Positions 9,942-32,529 of a stretch of 32,877 nucleotides of DNA are shown in pieces. This stretch comes from Planctomycetota bacterium. GTDB lineage: Bacteria; Planctomycetota; GCA-002687715; DRQF01. Position 1 is the first letter of the stretch. Every line of letters begins with the position of its first letter. The stretch lies in assembly GCA_036479435.1 (NCBI GenBank), contig JAZGFI010000053.1, positions 1-32,877 on the forward strand, given 5' to 3'. The translations under genes and the position numbers were made by a program. The notes beneath the pieces are model-generated. The model made no database searches and was not told the DNA's origin. It saw only the letters and a list, made by a program, of their open reading frames with translations.

Positions 9942-9945
<4 letters not shown>
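8374..9945 (-). CDS. purH: Bifunctional AICAR formyltransferase/IMP cyclohydrolase
   Basis: [61 protein letters not shown] 9945 overlaps the prfB stop (ATGA). Confidence 0.97.
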
Positions 9946-11055
<1,110 letters not shown>

Positions 11056-11155
11056 GTTGGGTACTCTTGGCGGGTCGAGATTGGACAGATTTTGTGTCGT
11101 TAAGCTAGTGCAGCGGCGTCAAACCGCGGGGGCCCAAGTGCGAGAACGAAGGCCC

Positions 11156-11747: not shown

Positions 11748-12512
11748 ATGCACCACGAAACTTCAGACCCCCGATTCGAGCGACACCAGGCCAGTTTTCA
11801 AGTTGAGCCGGCCTGGTACCTCGAAGACAATCTTGTCGATTCTCCCCACACGGACCCCGGTCCCCGGGAGCCGCGTCCTCTCCTTTTGGCTCTACACGGC
11901 ATGGGCCAGGACGCTCTACGGTTCCACAGCGACCTCCACGGGCAGCTCGACGAGCGCTTCATCGTGGTCTACCCGGACGGCCCCCTCCCCCTTGAAATCA
12001 ACGAGGACGGCGGCACGCGCCGCGAAGGGCACGCCTGGTACATCTATACCGGCGACCAAGAGCGCTTCTTGGCTTCGGCGATCCGCAGTGAGGCCTATCT
12101 GCACGATCTCATCCACCAGGTCATGGCGATGCGATCGGTGGACCCGCGGCGGGTCTACTTGGCCGGTTACTCCCAAGGGGGCTACTTGGCGGGGATCATG
12201 GCCCTGCGGCGGCCGGACCTCTTCGCTGGCGTGGCGACGATCAACTCGCGCGTCAAAAATGAGATCCCACCGGACCGCAAGAGCGGCGACGCCAAGCTAC
12301 CCCTGCTGGTTCTCCACGGCGAAAAAGACCGCTTTATTCCGGTAGAAGTCGCGGAGGAATCCGCGAACCGCCTCCGGGATCGTGATTTCCCGGTGACTTT
12401 TAAGCGCTACAGCTCGGGACACCGCTTCACCGAAGAGCAGATAAAAGACCTCGCCACATGGCTCGACACCATCGACCGCGCAACGGACTTGGACTTGTCT
12501 CAAACGACATGA
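11748..12512 (+). CDS. Alpha/beta hydrolase (phospholipase/carboxylesterase family)
   Basis: LALHGMG, nucleophile elbow GYSQG, LHGEKD, and GH (catalytic His). Confidence 0.85.
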   Translation: MHHETSDPRFERHQASFQVEPAWYLEDNLVDSPHTDPGPREPRPLLLALHGMGQDALRFHSDLHGQLDERFIVVYPDGPLPLEINEDGGTRREGHAWYIYTGDQERFLASAIRSEAYLHDLIHQVMAMRSVDPRRVYLAGYSQGGYLAGIMALRRPDLFAGVATINSRVKNEIPPDRKSGDAKLPLLVLHGEKDRFIPVEVAEESANRLRDRDFPVTFKRYSSGHRFTEEQIKDLATWLDTIDRATDLDLSQTT

Positions 12513-13708
12513 GATTGGCTGTTTTCGTTTTTATAGGATGGGTCACGGCGGCGGTGCCCTTCGTGGTGGCCGCGACGCCTCACGACCCGCCCCCGGTGTT
12601 CCCGGAGATGTTCCTCGAAGAAGATCATCTTTCCTACCGCATCTTAATGTGGTCTCAGATCTACCGCGCCACCTACGGCTTCGAGCATCTCGACATCGAA
12701 GCGAACGCCGTAAAGGAAGCGAAGCTCCGCGAGAAAGTGCTCTGCGATTGGGTCGATTCACACGCTCCGGTTTGGATCGATGGCGTGAGGGTGCGCCCAA
12801 CCCTCGAGAAGCTCACGACGCACTTCAATGACCTGCAAAACGTCACCATGTATTTTCGCTACTCGACCCCGACGCCACCGAAGCGGGTCCGCTATCGCTG
12901 GACCGATTTCTTATTCGAAGACGACCTGAGCTTGCCAGAGATCAGGAGTTTCTTCACTTATCCCGAAGACATGTTGATCAACACTTTCACGGCCGAAGAA
13001 AAAGAGTTCACCTGGCACCGACCGGCACCAACCATCCCTGTTCTGCCGCTCGATGTCATCGGCGATAGGCTCATGCCTCCCACACCGCTAACGATTCCGA
13101 TCCCGGTGGGTTCAGCCGCTATCGTGCTCTTGGCCGCTTTAGCGATGATTCTTGGCGGGCCACTCAAGTGGAGTTTGCGCACACGCCTCATGGTTCTCGC
13201 AGCAGGAATCGCTCTGGCTTACGCCGCGAAAAACATCGCGATATGGGAAGTTGAGTCGGGGACGGCGACAAAGGACCACTTGATCTCAGAAAACGACGCC
13301 AAAGAACTCTTCCGATCGCTCCACGCGAACGTCTACCGCGCTTTCGACTACGACACGGAAAGCGCGGTCTACGACACCCTAGCCGAAAGTGTCAGCAAAG
13401 ACCTCCTCGACCGCCTCTACAACGAGATCTACCGCAGCCTCATCATGCGCGAAGCGGGCGGTGCCGTCGCCTCGGTCAAGGCCGTCAAGATCTTCGACGC
13501 CGCGATAAATCTGCCCAGCGATACTTCCGAGCACCGCTTCGAGGTCAACTGCGACTGGCAGGTAAAAGGTGTGGTCGAGCACCAAGGGCACAAACATCTC
13601 AGAACTCAGCGCTACCGGGCGCGTTATCAGGTTGCGAGACGAGACGGGAAATGGCGTCTTTCCGACGTCGAAATCCTCTCGCAAGAACGCATCGACGACG
13701 ATCAGTAA
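12509..13708 (+). CDS. Hypothetical exported/membrane protein with C-terminal His cluster
   Basis: ATGA overlap with the hydrolase stop; hydrophobic N-terminus; two central TM helices; C-terminal WQVKGVVEHQGHKHLR...GKWRL. Confidence 0.7.
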   Translation: MRLAVFVFIGWVTAAVPFVVAATPHDPPPVFPEMFLEEDHLSYRILMWSQIYRATYGFEHLDIEANAVKEAKLREKVLCDWVDSHAPVWIDGVRVRPTLEKLTTHFNDLQNVTMYFRYSTPTPPKRVRYRWTDFLFEDDLSLPEIRSFFTYPEDMLINTFTAEEKEFTWHRPAPTIPVLPLDVIGDRLMPPTPLTIPIPVGSAAIVLLAALAMILGGPLKWSLRTRLMVLAAGIALAYAAKNIAIWEVESGTATKDHLISENDAKELFRSLHANVYRAFDYDTESAVYDTLAESVSKDLLDRLYNEIYRSLIMREAGGAVASVKAVKIFDAAINLPSDTSEHRFEVNCDWQVKGVVEHQGHKHLRTQRYRARYQVARRDGKWRLSDVEILSQERIDDDQ

Positions 13709-15797: not shown

Positions 15798-16982
15798 CTA
15801 AATAACGCCGTGTTTTTTACCCACCGCCACGAAAGCCGCTACGGCGCGACCTAGTTGAATATCGTCGTGACCGGCGCTGATCTGAACCCGAATACGGGCA
15901 GCACCCTTGGGAACGACCGGAAAACTAAAGCCGATGACGTAGATTCCCTCGAGCAGCAGGTCGCTCGCCATGTCTTGAGCGAGCTTGGCGTCGCCCAGCA
16001 TGATCGGGACGATGGGATGCACCCCGGGACGGATGGCGAATCCGGCGGCCGTCATCGCCTCACGGAAACGCATTGTGTTGGCTTCGAGGCGATCGCGAAG
16101 TTCGGTGGTTTCCGACAGCATCTTGAGGCACTCTAGACCCGCACAGACCAAGGCTGGAGCCAGCGTGTTCGAGAATAGGTAGGGCCGTGAACGTTGGCGC
16201 AAGAGCTCAATGATCTCGGCCTTGCCCGTCGTGTAACCGCCGCTGGCTCCGCCGAGAGCCTTGCCCAAAGTTGAGGTGATGAGATCGATGCGGCCTTCGA
16301 CGCCGCAGTGCTCGGGCGTGCCGCGGCCGGTCTTGCCGAAAAACCCGGTGGAATGGCATTCGTCGACGTGCACGAGGGCGTCGTACTTTTCGGCAAGGTC
16401 ACAGATCTCGGCGAGTTTGGCGATGTCGCCATCCATCGAAAAGACGCCGTCGCTAGTGATGATGCGAGTGCGCGCGCCAGCAGACTCCTTCAAACAGTTT
16501 TCGAGTTCCGTCATATCAGCGTGGGCGAAGCGGAAACGCTGGGCCTTGCAGAGACGGACCCCGTCGATGATGGAGGCATGATTCAAGGAATCAGAAATGA
16601 TCGCGTCTTCTTTGCCCAAAAAGGGCTCGAAGAGGCCACCGTTGGCGTCAAAGCAAGCAGCGTAAAGGATCGTATCCTCGGTCCCGTGAAACTCAGCGAT
16701 CGCGCTTTCGAGCTCCTTGTGAATCGTCTGGGTACCGCAGATAAATCGCACACTGGAAAGGCCTAGACCCCAAGCCTCAAGACCATCTTGCGCGGCCTTG
16801 ATCAACCGGGGGTTGTCGGCGAGGCCAAGGTAATTATTCGCACAGAAGTTCAGCACTTCTACCCCACCGACCTCGATGCGCGCGCTCTGCTTGCTGTTGA
16901 TGACCCGTTCGTCTTTTGAAAGGCCCGCTTGTCTGATCGCGGCGATTTCGCCCTGTAGTCGTTTTTGGACTTCGCCGTACAT
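15798..16982 (-). CDS. kbl: Glycine C-acetyltransferase (2-amino-3-ketobutyrate CoA ligase)
   Basis: [48 protein letters not shown] (PLP Lys), [16 protein letters not shown]. Confidence 0.96.
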
Positions 16983-17045
16983 CGTCTCTCCTAATTCTTC
17001 GTTAGTGATAGTGGGCGCGCACTCCGCCCAGATTGGTGTTTGGAG

Positions 17046-18068
17046 CTACTTGCCGTAACGCTTTCGAATGTTCGGCAGCAGGTACTCCTTCATCGTGCGC
17101 TCCAAGTCGAAACGGGGAGCAAATCCCCAGTCTCGGCGCGCCGCCGAGTCCTCAACGTCCAGGGGCCAACTATCGACGATGGCCTGCCGTTTTTCGTCGG
17201 GCTCGAAACGAATGTCCGCGCCGGGGAAGGCCTCGCGAATCAACTCGGCGAAATCGCCCGCACTCGGATTGAAAGCCCCGATATTGTAGACCGTCCGCGT
17301 CATGGCGTCGGTATCCGCCGCGGCAAGCCGCAACATCCCGTCGACGGCATCGGGCATCGCCATGAAGGGGATCTGGGTATCCTCACGCACAAAGCAAGCG
17401 TAGGGTTCGCCCTTGGCCGCGGCGTGCAGCATCTCCGGGATGTAGTCGCTCGTACCGCCGCTCGGAACCGTAAAAGCCGAGATCAATCCGGGGAATCGAA
17501 TCGCACGAAAATCGACCCCCTGCTTGACCGGCTCTGCGGCCAGCTGCCGATAGTGATTGGAGTAATAGCGTCCAAGATGTTCGCAGTAGAGTTTATTGCA
17601 GCCGTACATCGTCGTCGGCAGCGTCCAATCGCGCTCTTTCACGCGACCCGCGCGGGCCTTCGTTTCAAGGTCGGGTAGACCATAGGCGGCAATCGAACTC
17701 GGAAAAACGAACTTCACGCGCGCGCCGTGCCAGCGCGATTGTTCAACCGCGAGTTCGAGCAGATTCAAAGTGCCCTCGACGTTGACCGCATGTGCGGTGC
17801 TGGGCGTAAACTCCGCCCGCGTCGACAGCAAGGCCGCAAGGTGCAAGATCGCGTGAATCTCGAACTCGCTGACCAGGCGCCCGAGGAGCTTTTTGTCGAG
17901 CACATCGCCAACAATCGTGTGAGCACACTTGGGAGCCAAACGCGAGTCGATGTCGTTGAGATCCAAAGCGAGAACGTCGTAACGCCCCTCGTCCGCCAGG
18001 GCGTGGATGAGGCCGTGACCGACTTCGCCATTGGCTCCGGTAATGAGTACCACGGGTTTTCGGCTCAA
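17046..18068 (-). CDS. SDR/epimerase-family enzyme, probable L-threonine 3-dehydrogenase
   Basis: GANGEVG Rossmann motif, HLAALLS, PSSIAAYG, MYGCNK, IRFPGLIS, GGTSDY, IVDSWP; lies directly upstream of kbl. TTG start at 18068 follows AGGAG. Confidence 0.82.
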   Translation of the reverse strand: MSRKPVVLITGANGEVGHGLIHALADEGRYDVLALDLNDIDSRLAPKCAHTIVGDVLDKKLLGRLVSEFEIHAILHLAALLSTRAEFTPSTAHAVNVEGTLNLLELAVEQSRWHGARVKFVFPSSIAAYGLPDLETKARAGRVKERDWTLPTTMYGCNKLYCEHLGRYYSNHYRQLAAEPVKQGVDFRAIRFPGLISAFTVPSGGTSDYIPEMLHAAAKGEPYACFVREDTQIPFMAMPDAVDGMLRLAAADTDAMTRTVYNIGAFNPSAGDFAELIREAFPGADIRFEPDEKRQAIVDSWPLDVEDSAARRDWGFAPRFDLERTMKEYLLPNIRKRYGK

Positions 18069-18158
18069 GGCGCAGCTCCTAGGTGGCGGTCTGAAACAGG
18101 GAGTCGCCAACTTTAGCTTCGGGTTGTCAGAATGCCCAGAGCTGAGAACTGGGGCGGT

Positions 18159-19541
18159 TCAGGGGCTTTCCTCGCTGGGCTCTGCTGGCTTTTCTCCGGC
18201 TGGCGAGACTGGCGAGACTGGAGATGCGGCATCCGGCATCGGCATGGAGACGGGTGATGAGCTTGGGGTTGGCTCCACCGCCGCCGACGAGGTGGCCGAA
18301 GCCGCGGCATAGGCCGCACGGATGCTCTCCAAGGCCGCCGTCGCTGCGGGTTTATCGAGAGCCTTCCACCGCCCGCGGACTTTTCGGGTTTCGAGGCCTT
18401 TTTTGCCAACCTGCAGGCTGGTGATATGCCGTCCATCCTCGGGCGAAAAAACGTGGGTACGACCCTTGGCTCCGAGAACGATCCAGGTCTTTTCTTTTAG
18501 GTCCTCATAAAGCCGGTCGAATCGAACCGAAACCAGATCAGCCTGCGCCATCCCTGTAGGCCGGTCTTGCTGTTCCGCACGCCCTCTTGCGTGATCAGTG
18601 CGCCATTGCTCGCGGCGATCGTGCCGCTTCAAACCCGATGCCATGTCGGCCAATAGTTGCGTCGCGGCCTCGGCGGCGGCCTTTAGACGAAGGCCTGGAT
18701 CCAGTCGTTTCAATTCCTGATTGATCGCCGCCAAACTCCAGTCGGCGCGGCGCAACAATTCGATGAAGCCGTAGGGCTCGTCGGAACCTAAGAGCGTTTC
18801 GGCTCCTCTGCCATCAGGCAAGATGCCTATCGTGTTCAGGCCAAGGCGCACCACTTTCGAGCGCGTCGAAGACCGAATGATCTGAATCGTGACCGCAAAC
18901 TTGCCCTCGTTGTCCGCGCCGTTCTGCCGAAAGTAGCCGATCAGAATCTGCCCCCGGATGTCGTAAACGCGATCGCGCTTCGCAAAAATCGGCATGCGGT
19001 TCGAGACCAAGTCCTCCCGGTCGACGGCGAGGATGACCGAGCGCGGGCGCTCCGAAGACAGAATCTCAAATTCCGGCCGGCCTTGGTCTAGAGCCCAGGC
19101 AAGCAGAGGCTGCCACTGCGGAATCCCCGTTTCGCTATAGCCACAAAAAATCTCCCGCGGGCCGTGGGGGCGGCAAGCTTCGGTGTCGGCCCGATCTTCA
19201 AAAAAGGAATAAACCGCCCCGGGGCGAAAAGCCGCGTGAGCCAAGATCGCATCGTCGAGGTGCTGGTCGAGGGAGGATAGGGCGGTTTTGGCCCGAGCCT
19301 TGATCGATTTGTTGTGCCCACTGAAATCGATGGGCAAGGAAAGGTCGAGCTCAGGCAGCGAGCGGACGACATCACGGGCGTGGGGCTTGCTGAGGAAAAC
19401 TTTGCGGCCAATTTCGCCCAAGCGAGCCAATACCTCCTCAAGCTCCCCTTGCTGGGGGTGCTCGGGCTCCTGGCGTTTTTTCTTGGGCTTCCGACGTCTG
19501 GGGCTGGACGGCGTCGGGGGCGAGGGGGATCGTTCGGTCAT
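18159..19541 (-). CDS. Hypothetical protein with basic N-terminus and low-complexity C-tail
   Basis: Long ORF filling the gap between the dehydrogenase and valS; no family confidently recognised. Start could also be 19574. Confidence 0.7.
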   Translation of the reverse strand: MTERSPSPPTPSSPRRRKPKKKRQEPEHPQQGELEEVLARLGEIGRKVFLSKPHARDVVRSLPELDLSLPIDFSGHNKSIKARAKTALSSLDQHLDDAILAHAAFRPGAVYSFFEDRADTEACRPHGPREIFCGYSETGIPQWQPLLAWALDQGRPEFEILSSERPRSVILAVDREDLVSNRMPIFAKRDRVYDIRGQILIGYFRQNGADNEGKFAVTIQIIRSSTRSKVVRLGLNTIGILPDGRGAETLLGSDEPYGFIELLRRADWSLAAINQELKRLDPGLRLKAAAEAATQLLADMASGLKRHDRREQWRTDHARGRAEQQDRPTGMAQADLVSVRFDRLYEDLKEKTWIVLGAKGRTHVFSPEDGRHITSLQVGKKGLETRKVRGRWKALDKPAATAALESIRAAYAAASATSSAAVEPTPSSSPVSMPMPDAASPVSPVSPAGEKPAEPSEESP

Positions 19542-19662
19542 AGCCAAAGCATAGCTCTTGGAGGCCCCGATCACTCACTGATATGATCCCAACCTAATTC
19601 GGGCCCGAGAGTGGGCTCGGATCGACAAGATCTGCGGTTTGCCAAACGAAAGATGCCACCCG

Positions 19663-25484: not shown

Positions 25485-25518
25485 GAAGGAGCTCCGGGAC
25501 GACAGATTGACCCCCCTC

Positions 25519-25546
25519 TTATCGACCAATTTGGCCAGCAGCTTCA
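25519..25546 (-). promoter_or_regulatory. Sigma-28-like promoter upstream of the HEAT-like gene
   Basis: Minus strand TGAAG-N15-GTCGATAA (7/8 match to GCCGATAA). Confidence 0.45.
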
Positions 25547-25557
25547 GTGTTTTGATA

Positions 25558-25662
25558 TAACTATCTATTGCTAAGCAACTTATGGACCACCGCGCCTCCT
25601 AAACAGCGTTGCAATATCTCGACCGAAGACTTCATCCTAACTTGCTGTAAGATAGTGACTTG
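25558..25662. promoter_or_regulatory. Two TAACT-N15-ACTTR motifs in the divergent promoter region
   Basis: TAACT-atctattgctaagca-ACTTA (25558-25582) and TAACT-tgctgtaagatagtg-ACTTG (25638-25662), starting exactly 80 bp apart. Confidence 0.45.
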
Positions 25663-25742
25663 TGAACCCATACCCCCCTGCCTTGCGGGCCTGACCGGCT
25701 TTCCCTACAACGATGTCCTCGTATCGAGGCGGAGCTTTTTTG

Positions 25743-26681
25743 ATGACCGAGCTAAAACGAAAACCCGCCTGGCTGAAGATTCGTCCGCCCGCGGGCGCGG
25801 AATACCAGCGCATTAGGGGCCTCCGTCAGGGACTCAAGCTCGCCACGGTTTGTGAAGAAGCGGCCTGCCCGAACGTGGCGGAGTGCTGGGGAGGGGGCAC
25901 CGCGACCTTCATGCTCCTCGGCGACACCTGCACCCGCGGCTGCCGTTTTTGCAACGTCAACACCGGCAACCCCCGGGGCGTCGTCGACCGCGCCGAACCC
26001 GAAAACCTCCTCGAAGCCGTCGCCACGATGGAGCTCGACTACGTCGTCTTAACGATGGTGGATCGCGATGACCTCGAAGACGGCGGCGCCGCTCATATCC
26101 GCGACTGCATTCAGAGCCTAAAAAGCGGCCTGCCCGATCTTCGCGTCGAGATTCTGACCGGAGACTTTCGCGGCAATCGCGAGGCCATTCGCCTGGTCGC
26201 CAACTCTGGCTGTGACGTCTTTGCTCACAACATCGAAACCACGCGAACCTTGACCGCCAGCGTGCGCGACAAAAAGTGCGGCTACGATCAAACCCTCGCC
26301 GTGCTGGAGTTCGCAAAAAAGGTCAATCCGAAGCTCGTCACGAAATCTTCGATCATGTTGGGCCTGGGCGAATCCGACCAAGATGTCGAGCAAACCCTGC
26401 GCGACCTGCGCGAAGCGGGCTGCGAGATCGTCACCATCGGCCAGTACCTTCGCCCCGCCGAGAAATTCCTGCCGGTCGTCGATTATGTGACCCCTGAGGC
26501 CTTCGCCGACTGGGAACAGCGCGCCTTGGATTTGGGTTTTGCGTTTTGCGCCTCAGGGCCCTTGGTCCGCAGTTCCTACCGTGCGGGCGAGCTGTTCTTG
26601 ACGCGTTATCTCGCCCAGCGCAATACCGCCAAGCCGACCCCGCACCACGACCTTCGCTCGGAGGAAAACTCCAAGCTATGA
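25743..26681 (+). CDS. lipA: Lipoyl synthase
   Basis: KPAWLK, CEEAACPNVAEC (CX4CX5C), CTRGCRFC (radical SAM), HNIET, GQYLRP, RSSY. GGAG precedes ATG 25743. Confidence 0.97.
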   Translation: MTELKRKPAWLKIRPPAGAEYQRIRGLRQGLKLATVCEEAACPNVAECWGGGTATFMLLGDTCTRGCRFCNVNTGNPRGVVDRAEPENLLEAVATMELDYVVLTMVDRDDLEDGGAAHIRDCIQSLKSGLPDLRVEILTGDFRGNREAIRLVANSGCDVFAHNIETTRTLTASVRDKKCGYDQTLAVLEFAKKVNPKLVTKSSIMLGLGESDQDVEQTLRDLREAGCEIVTIGQYLRPAEKFLPVVDYVTPEAFADWEQRALDLGFAFCASGPLVRSSYRAGELFLTRYLAQRNTAKPTPHHDLRSEENSKL

Positions 26682-27727
26682 AACAGATTCTCGATCGTGA
26701 CGGTCACCTCAGCCAAGCGGATGCCTTGACGGCGTCACGTACTGAGCTTCTTGAGATCTACCGACTCGCGAAACTTACTCGCCGAGCCGACGAAGAGATG
26801 TTGCGCCTTCAGGCCGAAGGTCTGGGCGACCTGTCTTTCTTCGTGCCAAGCTTCGGCGAAGAAACAGCGCATGTTGCCGCCACCCTCGCGCTCGAGTTCG
26901 ACGACCTGATATTCCGCGGCTTGCGGGGCAGCGGCATTGCGCTCGCGCGCGGCGTTGACCTGCATGCCTTTTTTGCGGCCGCACTGGGTTGCGACCAAGC
27001 CATGGGTCGATCCCTCCCGGGCCTCAGCGCCGAACCGGAATTCAGCATCTGCTGCGGGTCGGCCCGCCCGGCTGCGTCTTTGATGCCAGCGGTCGGTGCC
27101 GCACGAGCCTTGGCCCTCAAAGGCCAAGCACAGCCTCGCATCGCGGTCGCCTTTTTTGGCGTTGGCAGCACGCAGCACCCGGATTTTGCGGGGGCCTTAG
27201 AACTCGCGACCCATCTTGAGAGCCCGGTCTTGTTTTTAGCCACGAGTGATCGTCAGGGACCAAGCGGTGAGATCGCCGCCCGCGCCGAAAACGCGGGAGT
27301 CAGCGCCGAATACGTGGACGGTGACGACGCTATTGCCGTCTTCGAAAGCGTGCGCAGCCTCAGCCAAATCGTGCGTCAAGACGGCCGCCCGGGCTTGATC
27401 GAAATGGCGGTTGAGTTTCCGGAACCTGGTGGCAATCCCGGATCGAATCCGGCCCACGATCGCTTGGGGAATTTCCTGAAATCAGAAGGACTATTACCTG
27501 ATGACTTAAGCCGCGAGATCAACCGAGCGATCGACCGTGAAGTCGTCGAAGCTCGCGATGCAGCTAGCAATCTTAAGACCCAAGAGCCGCGGCCCCCGAG
27601 CGAACAGATCTTTGCTGAGGTGCTGTGCCGGGCAAGCGCAGACTTGGAAGGCCAAGATCAAAACTACCGCGATTTTGACGCGGAGTACGGCGGCTCGGAA
27701 GATCCCGACGCCAGGTGCCTCCTTTGA
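26678..27727 (+). CDS. 2-oxoacid dehydrogenase E1 alpha-like protein with degenerate ThDP-binding motif
   Basis: E1alpha landmarks (GEET, AVGAA.A, VDGDDAIAV, RPGLIE) but GDG..NN reads GVG..SD. ATGA overlap with the lipA stop. Confidence 0.8.
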   Translation: MKQILDRDGHLSQADALTASRTELLEIYRLAKLTRRADEEMLRLQAEGLGDLSFFVPSFGEETAHVAATLALEFDDLIFRGLRGSGIALARGVDLHAFFAAALGCDQAMGRSLPGLSAEPEFSICCGSARPAASLMPAVGAARALALKGQAQPRIAVAFFGVGSTQHPDFAGALELATHLESPVLFLATSDRQGPSGEIAARAENAGVSAEYVDGDDAIAVFESVRSLSQIVRQDGRPGLIEMAVEFPEPGGNPGSNPAHDRLGNFLKSEGLLPDDLSREINRAIDREVVEARDAASNLKTQEPRPPSEQIFAEVLCRASADLEGQDQNYRDFDAEYGGSEDPDARCLL

Positions 27728-27741
27728 CCGCGAATTCAATC

Positions 27742-28749
27742 ATGACGACCGATCGCGACAATTTTCCAGCTGACCCTGGCGTGGATAACCGCCCCATGAG
27801 TGACATGGCCACGCAGATATTAGAAGGCTTGACCAAGGCCATGTTGGCGGACGACAAGGTCTTGTGCCTGGGCAACGAAACCGAAACTCAAGGCGGGCTC
27901 TTCGGCGCGACCCGAGGCTTGGTCGAGGATTTTGGCCCCGAACGGGTCCTGACTTTGCCCGACAATCCGCGTGCTCAACTTGCGACAGCTTTGGGAATGG
28001 CGCATGCCGGACTACGCCCCGTGCTGAGTTTGAACTTCGGTGACGATGTGCTCGGAGCGTTGGACATCCTCTGCGATGACATCGCCACCTTGCGCTATCG
28101 CAGTGGCGGGCAGAATTCTTGTCCGATGGTGCTGCGACTCCCCAGTGGCGGCGGCATCGGAGCCGGCCCCGCGCACAGCCGCGACCTGGCTCGCGAACTC
28201 GGCGGCCAAGCTGGCTTGCGCGTCGTCGCCTGTGGTTCGGCGGCAACCGCCAAGAGCTTGATTGAGCAAGCTATACGCAGCGACGACCCCGTCGTGCTGC
28301 TGGAACCAAAATCGCTCTATCGCGAGCGCGCGGCGGCAAGGGTCGCTGAGCTCGATCGGGCCTTGGTTCTCCACCAAGGCGATGATCTCAGCCTTTTCGC
28401 CTGGGGCGCTGCCGTTCCGGTCGCTCGCGAAGCTGTGGAGCAAGCGGCCGAACTGGGCATCGAGATTGAGTTGATCGACCTCGTCAGCATCAACCCGCTG
28501 GACGAAGAGACGATCTTGTCCTCGCTTCGCAAGACCGGCCGCGGTGTCATCGTCGAAGAAGGCAGTAAGCGCGGCGGCATCGGCGCCGAAGTCGCCGCGG
28601 TGATCGCCGAACGTGCCATTGATTCGCTTGAGGCACCGCTTCTGCGCGTCGCCGGTTGGAACACGCCCCTTAGCCGTTGCGGCGAGGAGCTCTACAGACC
28701 AGATTGCGGTCGCGTCATGCGAGCCGTCGAACAAGTCATCGATTTCTGA
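27742..28749 (+). CDS. 2-oxoacid dehydrogenase E1 beta-like protein lacking the ThDP-activating Glu
   Basis: GGLFGATRGL..FG..RV, RYRSGG, P.GGG.G...HS, DPVVLLEPKSLY, IDL.SI.PLD, KTGR, LEAPLLRV. The DTPxxE motif reads TLPDNP. Start uncertain (27715, 27742 or 27796). Confidence 0.85.
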   Translation: MTTDRDNFPADPGVDNRPMSDMATQILEGLTKAMLADDKVLCLGNETETQGGLFGATRGLVEDFGPERVLTLPDNPRAQLATALGMAHAGLRPVLSLNFGDDVLGALDILCDDIATLRYRSGGQNSCPMVLRLPSGGGIGAGPAHSRDLARELGGQAGLRVVACGSAATAKSLIEQAIRSDDPVVLLEPKSLYRERAAARVAELDRALVLHQGDDLSLFAWGAAVPVAREAVEQAAELGIEIELIDLVSINPLDEETILSSLRKTGRGVIVEEGSKRGGIGAEVAAVIAERAIDSLEAPLLRVAGWNTPLSRCGEELYRPDCGRVMRAVEQVIDF

Positions 28750-28761
28750 AAGGGATAGGCC

Positions 28762-30033
28762 GTGGCCTTCGAATTCAAATTGCCCGATCTCGGTGAAGGG
28801 GTCGCCGAGGGTGAGATCATCGAGTGGAAAGTCGCAGTTGGCGACACCGTCGAAGAAGACACTGCGTTGGTCGAAGTCATGACCGACAAGGCGACCGTCG
28901 AGATCCCCTCGCCGCAAGCGGGGACGATCAAAGAGATCCGTCACGAAGCGGGTGCCGTGGTGCCCGTGGGAGAAGTACTCGTGGTGATCGAGGGGGGCGG
29001 CGAATCCGCGACTCCGGCCGCTGCCGCACCTGCGGAGGCAACACCGCAGGTGCAAGCGGAGGTCAAGCTCGCGCCACCCGCGAGTGGCGCCAGCGCCCCG
29101 GTGGCCGCTCCGGCTCCACGGGCGGCAGCGCCCGCCGCGAACTCCGCCTCGGTCTTGGCGGCCCCGGCAACGCGCAAGCTGGCGCGTGAACTCGGAGTTG
29201 ACTTGAGCGCCGCCCAAGGCAGTGGTCCTCGCGGGCGCGTCACCAAAGATGACGTGCGCGCCCTCGTTGGCACTAGCCCCCAAGCCACTCCGACGGCGGG
29301 CGCCTCGGCGCCCGTCACGCGGCCCGAGGGATCACGACAAACGATCACTCCGTATCGCGGATTGCGCAAAAAAATCGGCGATCAAATGGTCGCGAGCGCC
29401 TTCAGCAAACCGCACTTCACTTTGGTCGAAGAAATCGACATGACCGCGGTCAACGATTTGCGCAAGACCTACAAAGAAACCGCGGCCGAACGCGGAGTGA
29501 AGCTCACCTTTTTGCCCTTCATCATGAAGGCCTTGATCGCGGCCTTGAAGCACCATCCCGCCCTCAACGCTATCCTCGACGAGCAAGCGGGCGAGATTAT
29601 CACCTACGACGACGTCCACCTTGGCTTTGCCCTCGACACCGACCGCGGCTTGATGGTGCCTGTCATCCACGACGCCAACCGCAAGAACATGTACGAGCTT
29701 GCCGGTGATCTCGGACGTTTGAGCGGCGCCGGCCGCGACGGCAGCATTTCGCGCGAAGAGATGAGCGGCTCGACGATCACCATCACCAGCGCTGGTTCCA
29801 TCGGTGGCTTGTTTGCCACACCGATCATCAACCATCCCGAGGTTGCCATCCTCGGCATCTACCGCATTGAGGATCGCCCCGTGGTCGTCGCTGGCGACGT
29901 CGTCGTGCGCAAGATGATGTACATGTCGATCACCTTGGATCACCGAATCGTCGATGGCGGCGAAGCGGCGCGTTTCATGAACACGATGAAGCGCCTCCTC
30001 GGCGACCCCCGAACGATGCTGATGGAGGCATAG
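28762..30033 (+). CDS. Dihydrolipoamide acyltransferase (E2) with a single lipoyl domain
   Basis: Lipoyl domain EVMTDKA, Ala/Pro linker, subunit-binding domain AAPATRKLARELGVDL..GSGPRGRVTKDDV, catalytic DHRIVDG. Confidence 0.95.
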   Translation: MAFEFKLPDLGEGVAEGEIIEWKVAVGDTVEEDTALVEVMTDKATVEIPSPQAGTIKEIRHEAGAVVPVGEVLVVIEGGGESATPAAAAPAEATPQVQAEVKLAPPASGASAPVAAPAPRAAAPAANSASVLAAPATRKLARELGVDLSAAQGSGPRGRVTKDDVRALVGTSPQATPTAGASAPVTRPEGSRQTITPYRGLRKKIGDQMVASAFSKPHFTLVEEIDMTAVNDLRKTYKETAAERGVKLTFLPFIMKALIAALKHHPALNAILDEQAGEIITYDDVHLGFALDTDRGLMVPVIHDANRKNMYELAGDLGRLSGAGRDGSISREEMSGSTITITSAGSIGGLFATPIINHPEVAILGIYRIEDRPVVVAGDVVVRKMMYMSITLDHRIVDGGEAARFMNTMKRLLGDPRTMLMEA

Positions 30034-30036
30034 GCG

Positions 30037-31437
30037 GTGGAATCTTTCGATACCGTTGTCGTTGGCTCGGGGCCGGGAGGTTACGTGGCCGCCATTCGTC
30101 TCGGGCAGCTCGGGGTTAAGACCGCCATAATTGAAAAAGGCGAGCTCGGGGGGGTGTGCCTAAACTGGGGCTGCATCCCGTCCAAGGCCTACATCAACGC
30201 CGCAAAAGTCATCGAGCACATCGAGACCGCAGCTGAGATCGGCATCAGCGCCTCCAAGCCCACAGTTGATCTGGCGAAGATGAAGACTTGGAAGGACGGC
30301 ATCGTCACCAAGCTGACCGGAGGCATCGGTTTTCTGCTCGAGAAAAACGGCGTCACCATCATCAAGGGTGAGGCGAGTTTCAAAAACGACAGCACGCTTA
30401 TCGTGAAGGGCAAAGAAACTAAAGAGCTGAGATTCAAAAACGCGATTGTCGCGACCGGTTCTCGCTCGACGGAGATCCCGCCCTTTCCCTTTGACGGCGA
30501 GTTCGTGTTGACGAGCCGTCACATGCTCGCGCTGACGAAAGTCCCCAAAGACCTTGTCGTCGTGGGCGGCGGGGTCATCGGGCTTGAAATCGGCATGTTC
30601 ATGAACAAGTTCGGATCGAAGGTCACCGTCCTTGAGATGACCAAGCAAGTCTTGCCCGGCATCGACCCTGAGATCGTCAAAGTCTTGGTGCGCAAACTCA
30701 AAAAGCGCGGCATCAAAGTCATGACGGAAACCAAAGCACTCGGCTTTGAGGGCAAGGCTGGCAAGTTGAAGGTCCGCGCCGAGGACAAAAAAGGCAAGGT
30801 CCACGAGATACCGGCGGAAAAGATCCTCGTCAGTGTCGGCCGCCGTCCGAATAGTGAAAACATCGGGCTCGAAAAAGTTGGTATCAAGCTTGACGCGCAG
30901 GGCTTCATCACCGTGGATGCGCAGCTAAAAACCTCGAACCCCAAGATCTTCGCAATCGGCGACGTCGCCGGTGGCGCACTCTTGGCCCACAAAGCCTCGA
31001 AAGAGGGACTCGTTGCCGCGGCCGTGATTTCCGGCAAGAACGAAATCTACGACGTGCGCGTCATGCCCGCCGCCGTCTTCACCGACCCCGAGATCGCCAC
31101 CGCCGGCTTGACGGAAGCCGAGGCCAAAGCCGCCGGTCACAAGGTTCGGGTCGGCAGTTTTCCCTACAGTGCGCTCGGCAAAGCCATGGCGGTCCGCGAA
31201 ACCGAGGGCTTCGTCAAGATGGTCGCCGACGCCGACAGCGATCGTGTTCTCGGCGTGCACATCATCGGTTACGAAGCCTCGAACCTAATTTCTGAAGCAG
31301 CCCTTGCGATCGAAATGGGCGCCTGCGTCGAAGACATCGCCTTGACCGTCCACCCCCACCCCACCATCGGCGAGAGCATGATGGAGGCAGCAGAAGCGGT
31401 ACACGGCCACGCGATCCACATCTACAATCCCAAGTAA
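30037..31437 (+). CDS. lpdA: Dihydrolipoyl dehydrogenase (E3)
   Basis: [45 protein letters not shown]. Confidence 0.97.
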
Positions 31438-31452
31438 CGAATTCAGGTTCAG

Positions 31453-32154
31453 GTGAACGAAGGCTCGCGACAACATGACCAGGGTCAAGGTCACGAGCCT
31501 TTTGCGCTTAGGGTCGAAGTCCTAGGCGTCGTCGACTACGCCGACGCCTTGGCCCGTCAAGAAGACCTCGTCGCCCGCCGCGCCCGCGATGAAGTTGGCG
31601 ACACGCTCCTGCTCTTAGAACATCCGGCTCTCTTTACTCTGGGTCGGGGCAGCGACCGCGCGAGCCTTCCCCAAAACTCAGATCTCCCTCTGATCGAAAC
31701 GCGTCGCGGCGGCAACATCACTTACCACGGCCCGGGGCAGATCGTCGGCTACTGGATTCGAAAGCTCGTCGGCGAAGACCGCGATCTGCATCGGCACCTA
31801 CGTCTCATCGAAGAGCTCCTCATTCGATCCTTAGCTGACTTCGAAGTCGCAGCTTCGCACCGCGAGGGCCTCACCGGAGTCTGGACGGAAGGCGGCAAGA
31901 TCGCCTCGATCGGTGTCGCGGTTCGATCTTGGGTCACCTACCACGGATTTGCCCTCAACATCGACGTCGACCCCGCCATCTACAGGCATTTTCGCCCCTG
32001 CGGCCTCGAAGGCTCAGTCATGACGAACCTCGCGACAGAACTCAAAAACCAAGCTGCGACTCCAAAGGTGGAGGGCCACCACTCCTTGGCCATCGAGGCC
32101 CTCACCCGAGCGTTCAAGACGATTGATCCATCTACGACGGCATCGTGGGGTTAA
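31453..32154 (+). CDS. lipB: Lipoyl(octanoyl) transferase
   Basis: [32 protein letters not shown]. Confidence 0.94.
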
Positions 32155-32529
32155 GAACAGAGAAAATAGGTCAGAGGGAGAATGATGACTGGCACGATAT
32201 GGCAGGTTCTTGATCGCCAGGAGTGGGGAATCGGTATGACAATTCGTCGCAGGCCAAAAGCACAGCTTGGCCCAGACTCGGGCCGCAGATTCGCCTTCTT
32301 GCATGATAAAGACCAGTAACCTCACTACCTTCCTATGGCACTTAGGTGCTTGGGCGGGGAAGCTTGGGAGTGGGGTATTGGCTCTGGAGTGGCTTCAGGG
32401 GTGAGGCAAGACCCAAAAAAACCGACGACAAAAAGATGGATGCTTTGCCAATGTCGGACAGGCCTGTATAAAGGCGAGTCCTCGGCAAGGATGTTGTTCC
32501 GGTCCAAGGCGCCCACAATGCGGGCGGGT

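Follow-up and report, generated by a model that had tools for sequence, protein, structure and literature searches.

The DNA stretch analysed here (the window; 32,877 nucleotides, positions 1 to 32,877 of contig JAZGFI010000053.1, assembly GCA_036479435.1, Planctomycetota bacterium) carries lipA, E1 alpha, E1 beta, E2, E3 and lipB in a single run. E1 of the 2-oxoacid dehydrogenase complexes, which uses thiamin diphosphate (ThDP), is a textbook enzyme; in this operon both of its subunits have lost cofactor motifs, and the pair is kept under selection. Compared genomes are labelled with G-numbers, G000 being the genome that carries the window (5.47 Mb assembly, 92% complete). PSBD denotes the subunit-binding domain of E2. 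The features of the operon are as follows.

25713..26681, plus strand: lipA, lipoyl synthase, intact (TIGR00510, 382.6 bits, cut-off 310)
26678..27727, plus strand: candidate pseudo-E1 alpha (alpha1) of 349 aa, which has its fold but neither the cofactor motifs nor the two loops
27158..27166, plus strand: GVG replacing GDG, Mg/diphosphate Asp lost (alignment to solved E1 chains, translation)
27242..27250, plus strand: TSD replacing xNN, followed by a shortened inner loop (alignment, translation)
27413..27445, plus strand: EFPEPGGNPGS, outer-loop remnant, catalytic His lost (alignment, translation)
27674..27712, plus strand: C-terminal FxxEYGGxxDP tail, conserved in the dead alphas of the family
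27715..28749, plus strand: candidate pseudo-E1 beta, activating Glu lost, His and C-terminal domain kept
27952..27969, plus strand: TLPDNP replacing DTPxxE (alignment, translation)
28027-28038, plus strand: SLNF replacing EIQF, Phe85 equivalent kept (alignment, translation)
28165-28179, plus strand: GPAHS, His128 equivalent kept (translation)
28585..28638, plus strand: kept beta-beta helix and IDSLEAP loop, forming with the terminal Phe the modelled E2-docking surface
28762..30033, plus strand: E2, with one lipoyl domain, PSBD and catalytic domain (Pfam domains)
30034..30036, no strand: gap of 3 bases between E2 and E3, the site of a second, intact alpha (alpha2) in relatives
30037..31437, plus strand: E3, dihydrolipoyl dehydrogenase, intact (TIGR01350, 561 bits, cut-off 409)
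31453..32154, plus strand: lipB, octanoyltransferase, intact (TIGR00214, 146.8 bits, cut-off 83.6)

The motif losses described in a first-pass annotation, which was made from the sequence alone, were borne out by translation and by alignment to solved E1 chains. In the alpha, GEG/GDG of the solved chains becomes GVG and NN becomes SD; the inner loop and the outer loop with the His271 equivalent are both shortened, and the His is absent. The Y102 equivalent is also lost (the alpha reads FRGLRG). In the beta, the Glu59 column holds a Pro, and the replaced EIQF and the retained GPAHS His translate as that annotation had claimed; the F85 equivalent is kept as well. According to the available part of PMC2663715, the residues with roles in E1 include D173, N202, Q200, Y102 and H271 of the alpha and E59, F85 and H128 of the beta, and the beta variants H128N and H128Q show 0.7% and 3.8% of complex activity. 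The pair is an E1 by descent and fold and, judged by four tested features, would be inactive. Chains with such losses are called dead below, in the sense of predicted inactive.

The E1 dehydrogenase fold and the transketolase Pyr and C-terminal folds were found on the two chains (PF00676, PF02779 and PF02780, all above cut-off), and the Atlas model of the alpha (pTM 0.82) superposes on E1 alpha models with a TM of 0.79-0.89. The NCBIfam scores are far below the cut-offs (130 bits vs. 411 for the alpha, 208 vs. 321 for the beta); as the alpha2 of intact relatives also misses the alpha cut-off (377 vs. 411), it is the size of the gap that matters, not the miss itself. Loss is concentrated on the cofactor parts. 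With conserved columns defined as those conserved in at least 90% of intact relatives, and regions drawn by the analyst from the motifs, the G000 alpha keeps 7/29 conserved columns in the cofactor motifs and loops vs. 42/67 elsewhere (Fisher p=7e-4), and the G000 beta keeps 7/21 cofactor columns vs. 35/47 in the C-terminal domain (p=2.5e-3). Across 11 dead alphas the corresponding values are 27% and 60%, with V, W, A, G, D, I or P at the GDG position. Seven degenerate betas keep 41% of the cofactor columns vs. 72% in the C-terminal domain and 83% in the dimer helix and LEAP loop; His is lost in 6/7 and Glu in 3/7, and the C-terminal Phe is kept in all seven together with most of the helix and loop. 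The alpha tail has its own conservation (F333, E336-G339, D342 and P343 invariant in 6/6 dead alphas; the tail is also present in G001 and G005), and is probably an assembly contact.

Both reading frames are open and full length, without stops or frameshifts, and the lipA stop overlaps the alpha start as ATGA, in line with the translational coupling proposed earlier. The start of the beta is ambiguous (27715, 27742 or 27796). The remaining genes had been described as intact, and this was confirmed: LipA, E3 and LipB score above their cut-offs, and E2, which passes no equivalog cut-off, has the lipoyl, PSBD and catalytic Pfam domains with the TDKA and DHRIVDG motifs. A promoter and terminator scan gave no signal above shuffles, and a word-based search with the alpha (E<=1e-20) returned the alpha itself as its sole match. 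Assembly error was ruled out by a contig of run X3, from a study other than X1 and X2, which is identical over 25500-32300 (0 differences, 0 gaps); X2 matches the same interval with 0 differences and 0 gaps and is a possible source of the window sequence. The identical protein is present on 4 contigs.

The pair is kept under selection and is not in simple decay. The ratio of nonsynonymous to synonymous substitution (dN/dS) was calculated by the Nei-Gojobori method with Jukes-Cantor correction, and in three comparisons of genomes with dead pairs it spans 0.18-0.37. The cleanest comparison, which excludes G000, is that of G001 with G005, where both subunits are dead and neither gene has gaps: dN/dS was 0.18 for the alpha and 0.19 for the beta (pN/pS intervals 0.19-0.32 and 0.17-0.32 respectively), vs. 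0.11 for lipA, 0.12 for E2 and 0.08 for E3. The values were 0.31 (alpha) and 0.26 (beta) for G039 vs. G073, and 0.37 and 0.36 for G000 vs. G003, the latter being weak evidence at a dS of 1.7-1.9, near saturation. Selection is also clearly relaxed, as the pair diverged by about 60% between G000 and G003, vs. about 27% for E2, E3 and LipA. A neutral pseudogene was ruled out by the purifying dN/dS and by the concentration of loss on the cofactor motifs: there are no stops or frameshifts, dN/dS is not near 1 and loss is not uniform. The pattern is that of a pseudoenzyme, with catalytic residues lost, fold kept and selection purifying. Close orthologues are degenerate as well, in line with the original proposal of a retained non-catalytic E1, and the simple decay that it had set against this was not found.

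In relatives the operon reads lipA, alpha1, beta, E2, alpha2, E3, lipB, with both alphas intact, and the ancestral operon carried two intact alphas. Such operons, with two intact alphas and one beta, are common in these Planctomycetota (L034-L049 and relatives, e.g. L042 and L043); alpha1-alpha2-beta2 heterotetramers or two specificities are candidate explanations of their gene content. In the family of the window every readable alpha1 is dead. G002, G004, G006 and G008 combine a dead alpha1 with an intact beta and a present alpha2 (cut by the contig end after GDG/NN in G008). G000, G001, G003 and G005 have a degenerate beta, alpha2 is cleanly gone from their operons, and no alpha2 orthologue was found in these four genomes (81-92% complete). 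In family f1 the beta chemistry tracks alpha2 presence. G087 has an alpha shortened to 267 aa, and its second alpha/beta pair is intact. Alpha1 is cleanly gone, with lipA followed by beta, in G012, G014 and at least 2/80 further genomes (loci L102 and L103 of G012 and G014, L258 and L260). G012 and G014 keep alpha2, and AceE was found in 0/5 members of their family. Deletion is thus possible, yet the dead alpha1 stays. Some proteins that group with alpha2 (P0043, P0089, P0097, P0035) are partly or fully motif-less, and either alpha paralogue appears able to die.

In the E2 tree the family of the window (99/98) lies inside its order, among intact operons (98/93), indicating that alpha death arose in place. 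A single clade of dead-alpha operons was rejected by the approximately unbiased (AU) test on E2, at p-AU 4e-5 with 21 vs. 18 rows. The test used a quick tree, with 4 of 43 rows dropped for their long branches, and takes the history of E2 as a proxy for that of the alpha. The rejection rules out one transferred dead operon and implies at least two origins.

A working E1 had been expected elsewhere in the genome, and G000 encodes three with intact-looking motifs. SucA (contig C174) adjoins its own E2 and E3. AceE (contig C39, L206:7770-10454) is above the TIGR00759 cut-off and has no adjoining E2. The third is a fused alpha/beta E1 of 735 aa (contig C279), located between thyA and panB, with GDG..DN, His loop, Glu and His present. 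An E2 lies within 1.5 kb of AceE in 3/30 of the AceE loci fetched, which suggests that E. coli-type E1s use one E2 in common with split or fused E1s. The search for E2 genes gave two in G000 and one in 8/14 genomes; with only two in G000, the E2 of the operon is probably the one used by AceE and the fused E1. For 2-oxoacids, an additional route is indicated by a 2-oxoacid:acceptor oxidoreductase alpha above cut-off (G000:C288:29450-31243).

The fused E1 is probably a branched-chain 2-oxoacid E1, given that panB adjoins it in 5 family members and that its best solved matches are branched-chain E1s. It forms a conserved family: the 120 matches listed are all 66-77% identical or the query itself, and those with names come from Myxococcota, from Planctomycetota and from loosely labelled Proteobacteria. 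As modelled (pLDDT 89, pTM 0.90), the fused E1 resembles transketolase (TM 0.71 by target, rmsd ~8) and not DXS (0.47, rmsd ~21), its domains being arranged as in transketolase and SucA. The active sites would accordingly lie between chains, and on this model no activity is expected of a hybrid that contains dead alpha and dead beta; a hybrid whose active site lies within the fused chain is unsupported. The beta catalytic residues of the fused E1 are invariant. Its beta half is without the acidic LEAP loop, having a shorter loop with Gly in 110/117 at the LEAP Glu position (aligned by eye), and lacks a Phe at the site equivalent to the end of the beta. The fused E1 of G000 (L054:2116-4323) ends in a conserved WxWIPPR tail, modelled with low confidence in the monomer, which may be a replacement of the alpha tail or a docking peptide.

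The fused E1 was present in 15/401 Planctomycetota genomes, distributed over four families. The alpha upstream of the beta was dead in 12/12 readable genomes of this group (G000-G006, G008, G039, G063, G073, G087); G007 and G134 are truncated ahead of the GDG position, and the G089 locus is unassembled. By contrast, among 99 genomes without the fused E1, 92 have an intact alpha (GDG, NN, His loop), 7 have no alpha there and none has a dead one. These 99 comprise 80 genomes (75 intact, 5 absent) hand-picked from about 115 with a beta of at least 60% identity, a further 17, and G012 and G014; they were chosen via a beta/alpha match, which would miss fully degenerate operons without the fused E1. 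G042 and G024, where the alpha was not seen adjoining the beta, were left out of the 2x2 count. The Fisher value for this co-occurrence overstates it, as kin are not independent. AceE was present in 30/39 genomes irrespective of alpha state, and was therefore ruled out as the trigger of alpha2 loss.

Docking of the pair on E2 was modelled. Two pseudo-beta chains with the E2 PSBD reached a docking score of 0.68, whereas the best of 3 controls reached 0.00; the contacts were made by IDSLEA and the terminal Phe, runs agreed in at least 86% of contacts, and the partner pLDDT was at least 78. The mark used was reached by 116/157 solved and 2/215 mismatched pairs, and is only roughly applicable here. 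Of the two E2 contacts proposed in the first-pass annotation, the one with the subunit-binding domain gained this support; competition for the lipoyl domain is improbable, as that domain is engaged by the loops that are deleted here.

The pair would almost certainly be unable to bind or activate ThDP, judging by its motifs, and very probably has remained under purifying selection while shedding its catalytic parts. As modelled, it is likely to assemble as alpha2beta2 and to dock on the PSBD of the operon's E2. Catalysis has very probably passed to other E1s, the dead state accompanying the stand-alone fused E1 by co-occurrence. The weakest step is the last, which we propose tentatively: the dead tetramer may use a new surface to tether the dimer of the fused E1 to the common E2 core, in the way that E3BP, a dead paralogue of E2, tethers E3. 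The fused E1 has chemistry without the usual docking site, the pair has the docking site without chemistry, and in the genomes compared the dead state was never met without the fused E1, even though clean deletion of either alpha is possible; this favours a tether. Taken as a whole, a selected pseudo-E1 that sits on the E2 PSBD and tethers the fused E1 is the reading we prefer, at a little less than an even chance. A retained non-catalytic E1, as first suggested, is supported by the motif loss, the purifying selection and the putative working E1s elsewhere, and its inactivity is predicted from residues; the lost alpha2 and the link to the fused E1 lie beyond what the first-pass annotation could see.

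Several observations weigh against the tether. That the dead pair touches the fused E1 is proposed from co-occurrence, which rests on four families and not on 12 independent cases, and displacement followed by relaxed selection predicts the same co-occurrence. Selection on the dead pair is relaxed about 2-fold, and in G001 and G005, the most advanced genomes, the docking helix is eroded too (3-4/6 columns kept). The docking pass may stem from likeness to the solved 1W85 complex; with a similar complex already solved, the score shows likeness more than binding. The beta-beta helix of the fused E1 has its own invariant residues (R663, Q666, G667), and, on the model, both sites would be dead in the simplest hybrid, which joins a fused chain to a dead alpha and a dead beta. 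Finally, the Glu motif of the beta is kept in 21/21 readable metagenome loci with a dead alpha, and a pure tether needs no Glu motif.

These metagenome loci (32) were collected with a DNA pattern in which the second Asn had to be lost, with taxonomy assigned by inference; alpha2 follows E2 in 1/8 of those long enough to tell. A profile of six dead alphas was also searched against 1.84 billion representatives; it favours dead alphas and includes its own seeds. Among the 150 matches listed, 133 are of 300-480 aa, and in 61 of these GDG, NN and the His loop are all missing, 43 retain the three and 29 are partial. Names among the matches point to Myxococcota. Motif-less alphas with an intact beta appear to be common in Myxococcota-like sequences, the taxonomy being indirect. 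The Labilithrix luteola protein WP_169928236.1 keeps GDG/NN and is without the His loop, which is absent in 119/120 of its neighbourhood.

The strongest rival, which we consider rather unlikely, is an entrenched relic without a positive role. The fused E1 would have made alpha1 catalysis redundant, alpha1 would have stayed as the obligate partner of alpha2 and beta, and after alpha2 loss the pair would persist since half-losses harm (misfolding, polar effects on E2/E3). The expected stages are seen, from loss of the outer loop only (L. luteola WP_169928236.1) through a dead alpha with intact beta and alpha2 (G002, G004, G006, G008) to degeneration of both subunits after alpha2 loss; the tracking of alpha2 by beta chemistry in family f1, a pair dN/dS about twice that of its neighbours and the shortened G087 alpha fit as well. 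Against this, clean deletions of either alpha do occur in the operon, and the dead pair survives branches of more than 1 substitution per site without a stop or frameshift and has been dropped in 0/12 readable fused-E1 genomes.

Less probable still, and in our view unlikely, is that the dead tetramer is a competitor or placeholder that fills the PSBDs of the single E2, setting the loading of E3, AceE and other E1s and leaving the fused E1 untouched. The available part of PMC2663715 states that one PSBD binds one tetramer, which would suit such a role, as would the kept and modelled docking surface, the service of several E1s by one E2 (or one plus a second) and the AceE of G000 without an E2 neighbour. 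However, AceE occurs regardless of alpha state, so that the hub predates the dead state, competition alone leaves the link with the fused E1 unexplained, and co-transcription of the pair with E2 and E3 would leave little room for regulation.

That the opened cleft has taken on a new task, in binding a ligand or in catalysis, is very unlikely: the fold is kept, the G000 beta retains its His and the alphas share a conserved tail, but there is no shared replacement residue, the His, Glu and GDG positions are lost or variable among relatives, and no conserved new pocket was seen. Most improbable is a mixed particle of a dead alpha and beta pair with one fused chain, having one live site if the beta is intact and otherwise being fully dead and inhibitory; the modelled trans geometry would let fused alpha and intact beta form a live site and could explain intact betas beside dead alphas without a nearby alpha2, but the fused E1 has invariant beta catalytic residues of its own and a dimer helix unlike that of the beta, both sites would be dead in G000, and alpha2 may sit elsewhere in those unassembled genomes.

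The closest known systems are the heterotetrameric E1s of pyruvate dehydrogenase (PDH) and branched-chain 2-oxoacid dehydrogenase (Geobacillus 1W85, Thermus 1UM9, human 1DTW; TIGR03181 class). The pair shares with them the fold, the alpha/beta split, the operon with E2, E3, lipA and lipB and the beta C-terminal docking surface; it differs in the loss of the Mg/diphosphate ligands, both loops and the H271 and E59 equivalents, and in the two alphas of the ancestral operon. The E3-binding protein (E3BP, protein X) of mammalian PDH is, in the accessible part of PMC6270654, a dead paralogue that tethers another component, E3, and is likewise a member of a 2-oxoacid dehydrogenase complex without catalytic activity. 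The dead component is an E2 in the case of E3BP, whereas here it is a bacterial E1 and tethering is only proposed. Plant DXS clade 3 is described, in the part of PMC13610720 available, as an inactive ThDP-enzyme paralogue under relaxed purifying selection, with a Ka/Ks of 0.19 vs. 0.12, close to the 0.18-0.19 of the pair vs. 0.08-0.12 of its neighbours. Unlike the pseudo-E1, it is a single chain outside any multienzyme complex. Human TKTL1 has a role in a heterodimer. It is a degenerate transketolase-fold paralogue, according to the accessible section of PMC12525540, and differs from the pseudo-E1 in being a eukaryotic transketolase with no E2 partner. EsgAB of Myxococcus xanthus, compared by published description only, is a split alpha/beta branched-chain E1 and so resembles the pair, but it is reported active in the available parts of PMC4320627 and PMC11980068. 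No description of a dead bacterial E1 was found in the open literature, subscription journals being mostly out of reach.

Elsewhere in the window, prfB (9942-11060, minus strand) has the usual CTT TGA C site at ~10989 with its N-terminal part in another frame, in line with a programmed +1 frameshift. A glycine C-acetyltransferase (TIGR01822 above cut-off) at 15798-18110 (minus strand) is preceded by an epimerase-fold oxidoreductase, which we take to be probably threonine dehydrogenase. Two adjoining signal peptidase I genes lie at 21-2375, the second (572 aa) with a large insertion between the catalytic segments. The open reading frames at 18159-19574 (minus strand, 471 aa) and 12458-13708 (plus strand, 416 aa) have no Pfam match.

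In these lineages, many proteins labelled as the alpha subunit of pyruvate or 2-oxoisovalerate dehydrogenase probably carry the wrong annotation. Whatever the mechanism, the operons are a repeated and staged natural experiment in pseudoenzyme birth, with loss of the outer loop, the inner loop, the Mg motif and then the beta. As close relatives span intact, half-dead and fully dead states, adaptor and entrenchment are directly testable against each other. An early stage is carried by a cultured organism, L. luteola. It is possible, if on balance doubtful, that bacteria repeatedly turned E1 into a dedicated non-catalytic adaptor, with a widespread fused E1, deprived of its own E2-docking site, reaching E2 only via a dead alpha2beta2, in a four-component complex found in several Planctomycetota families and probably in many Myxococcota. 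If true, this would add a new component class to the 2-oxoacid dehydrogenase complexes and show how one E2 core is shared among several E1s.

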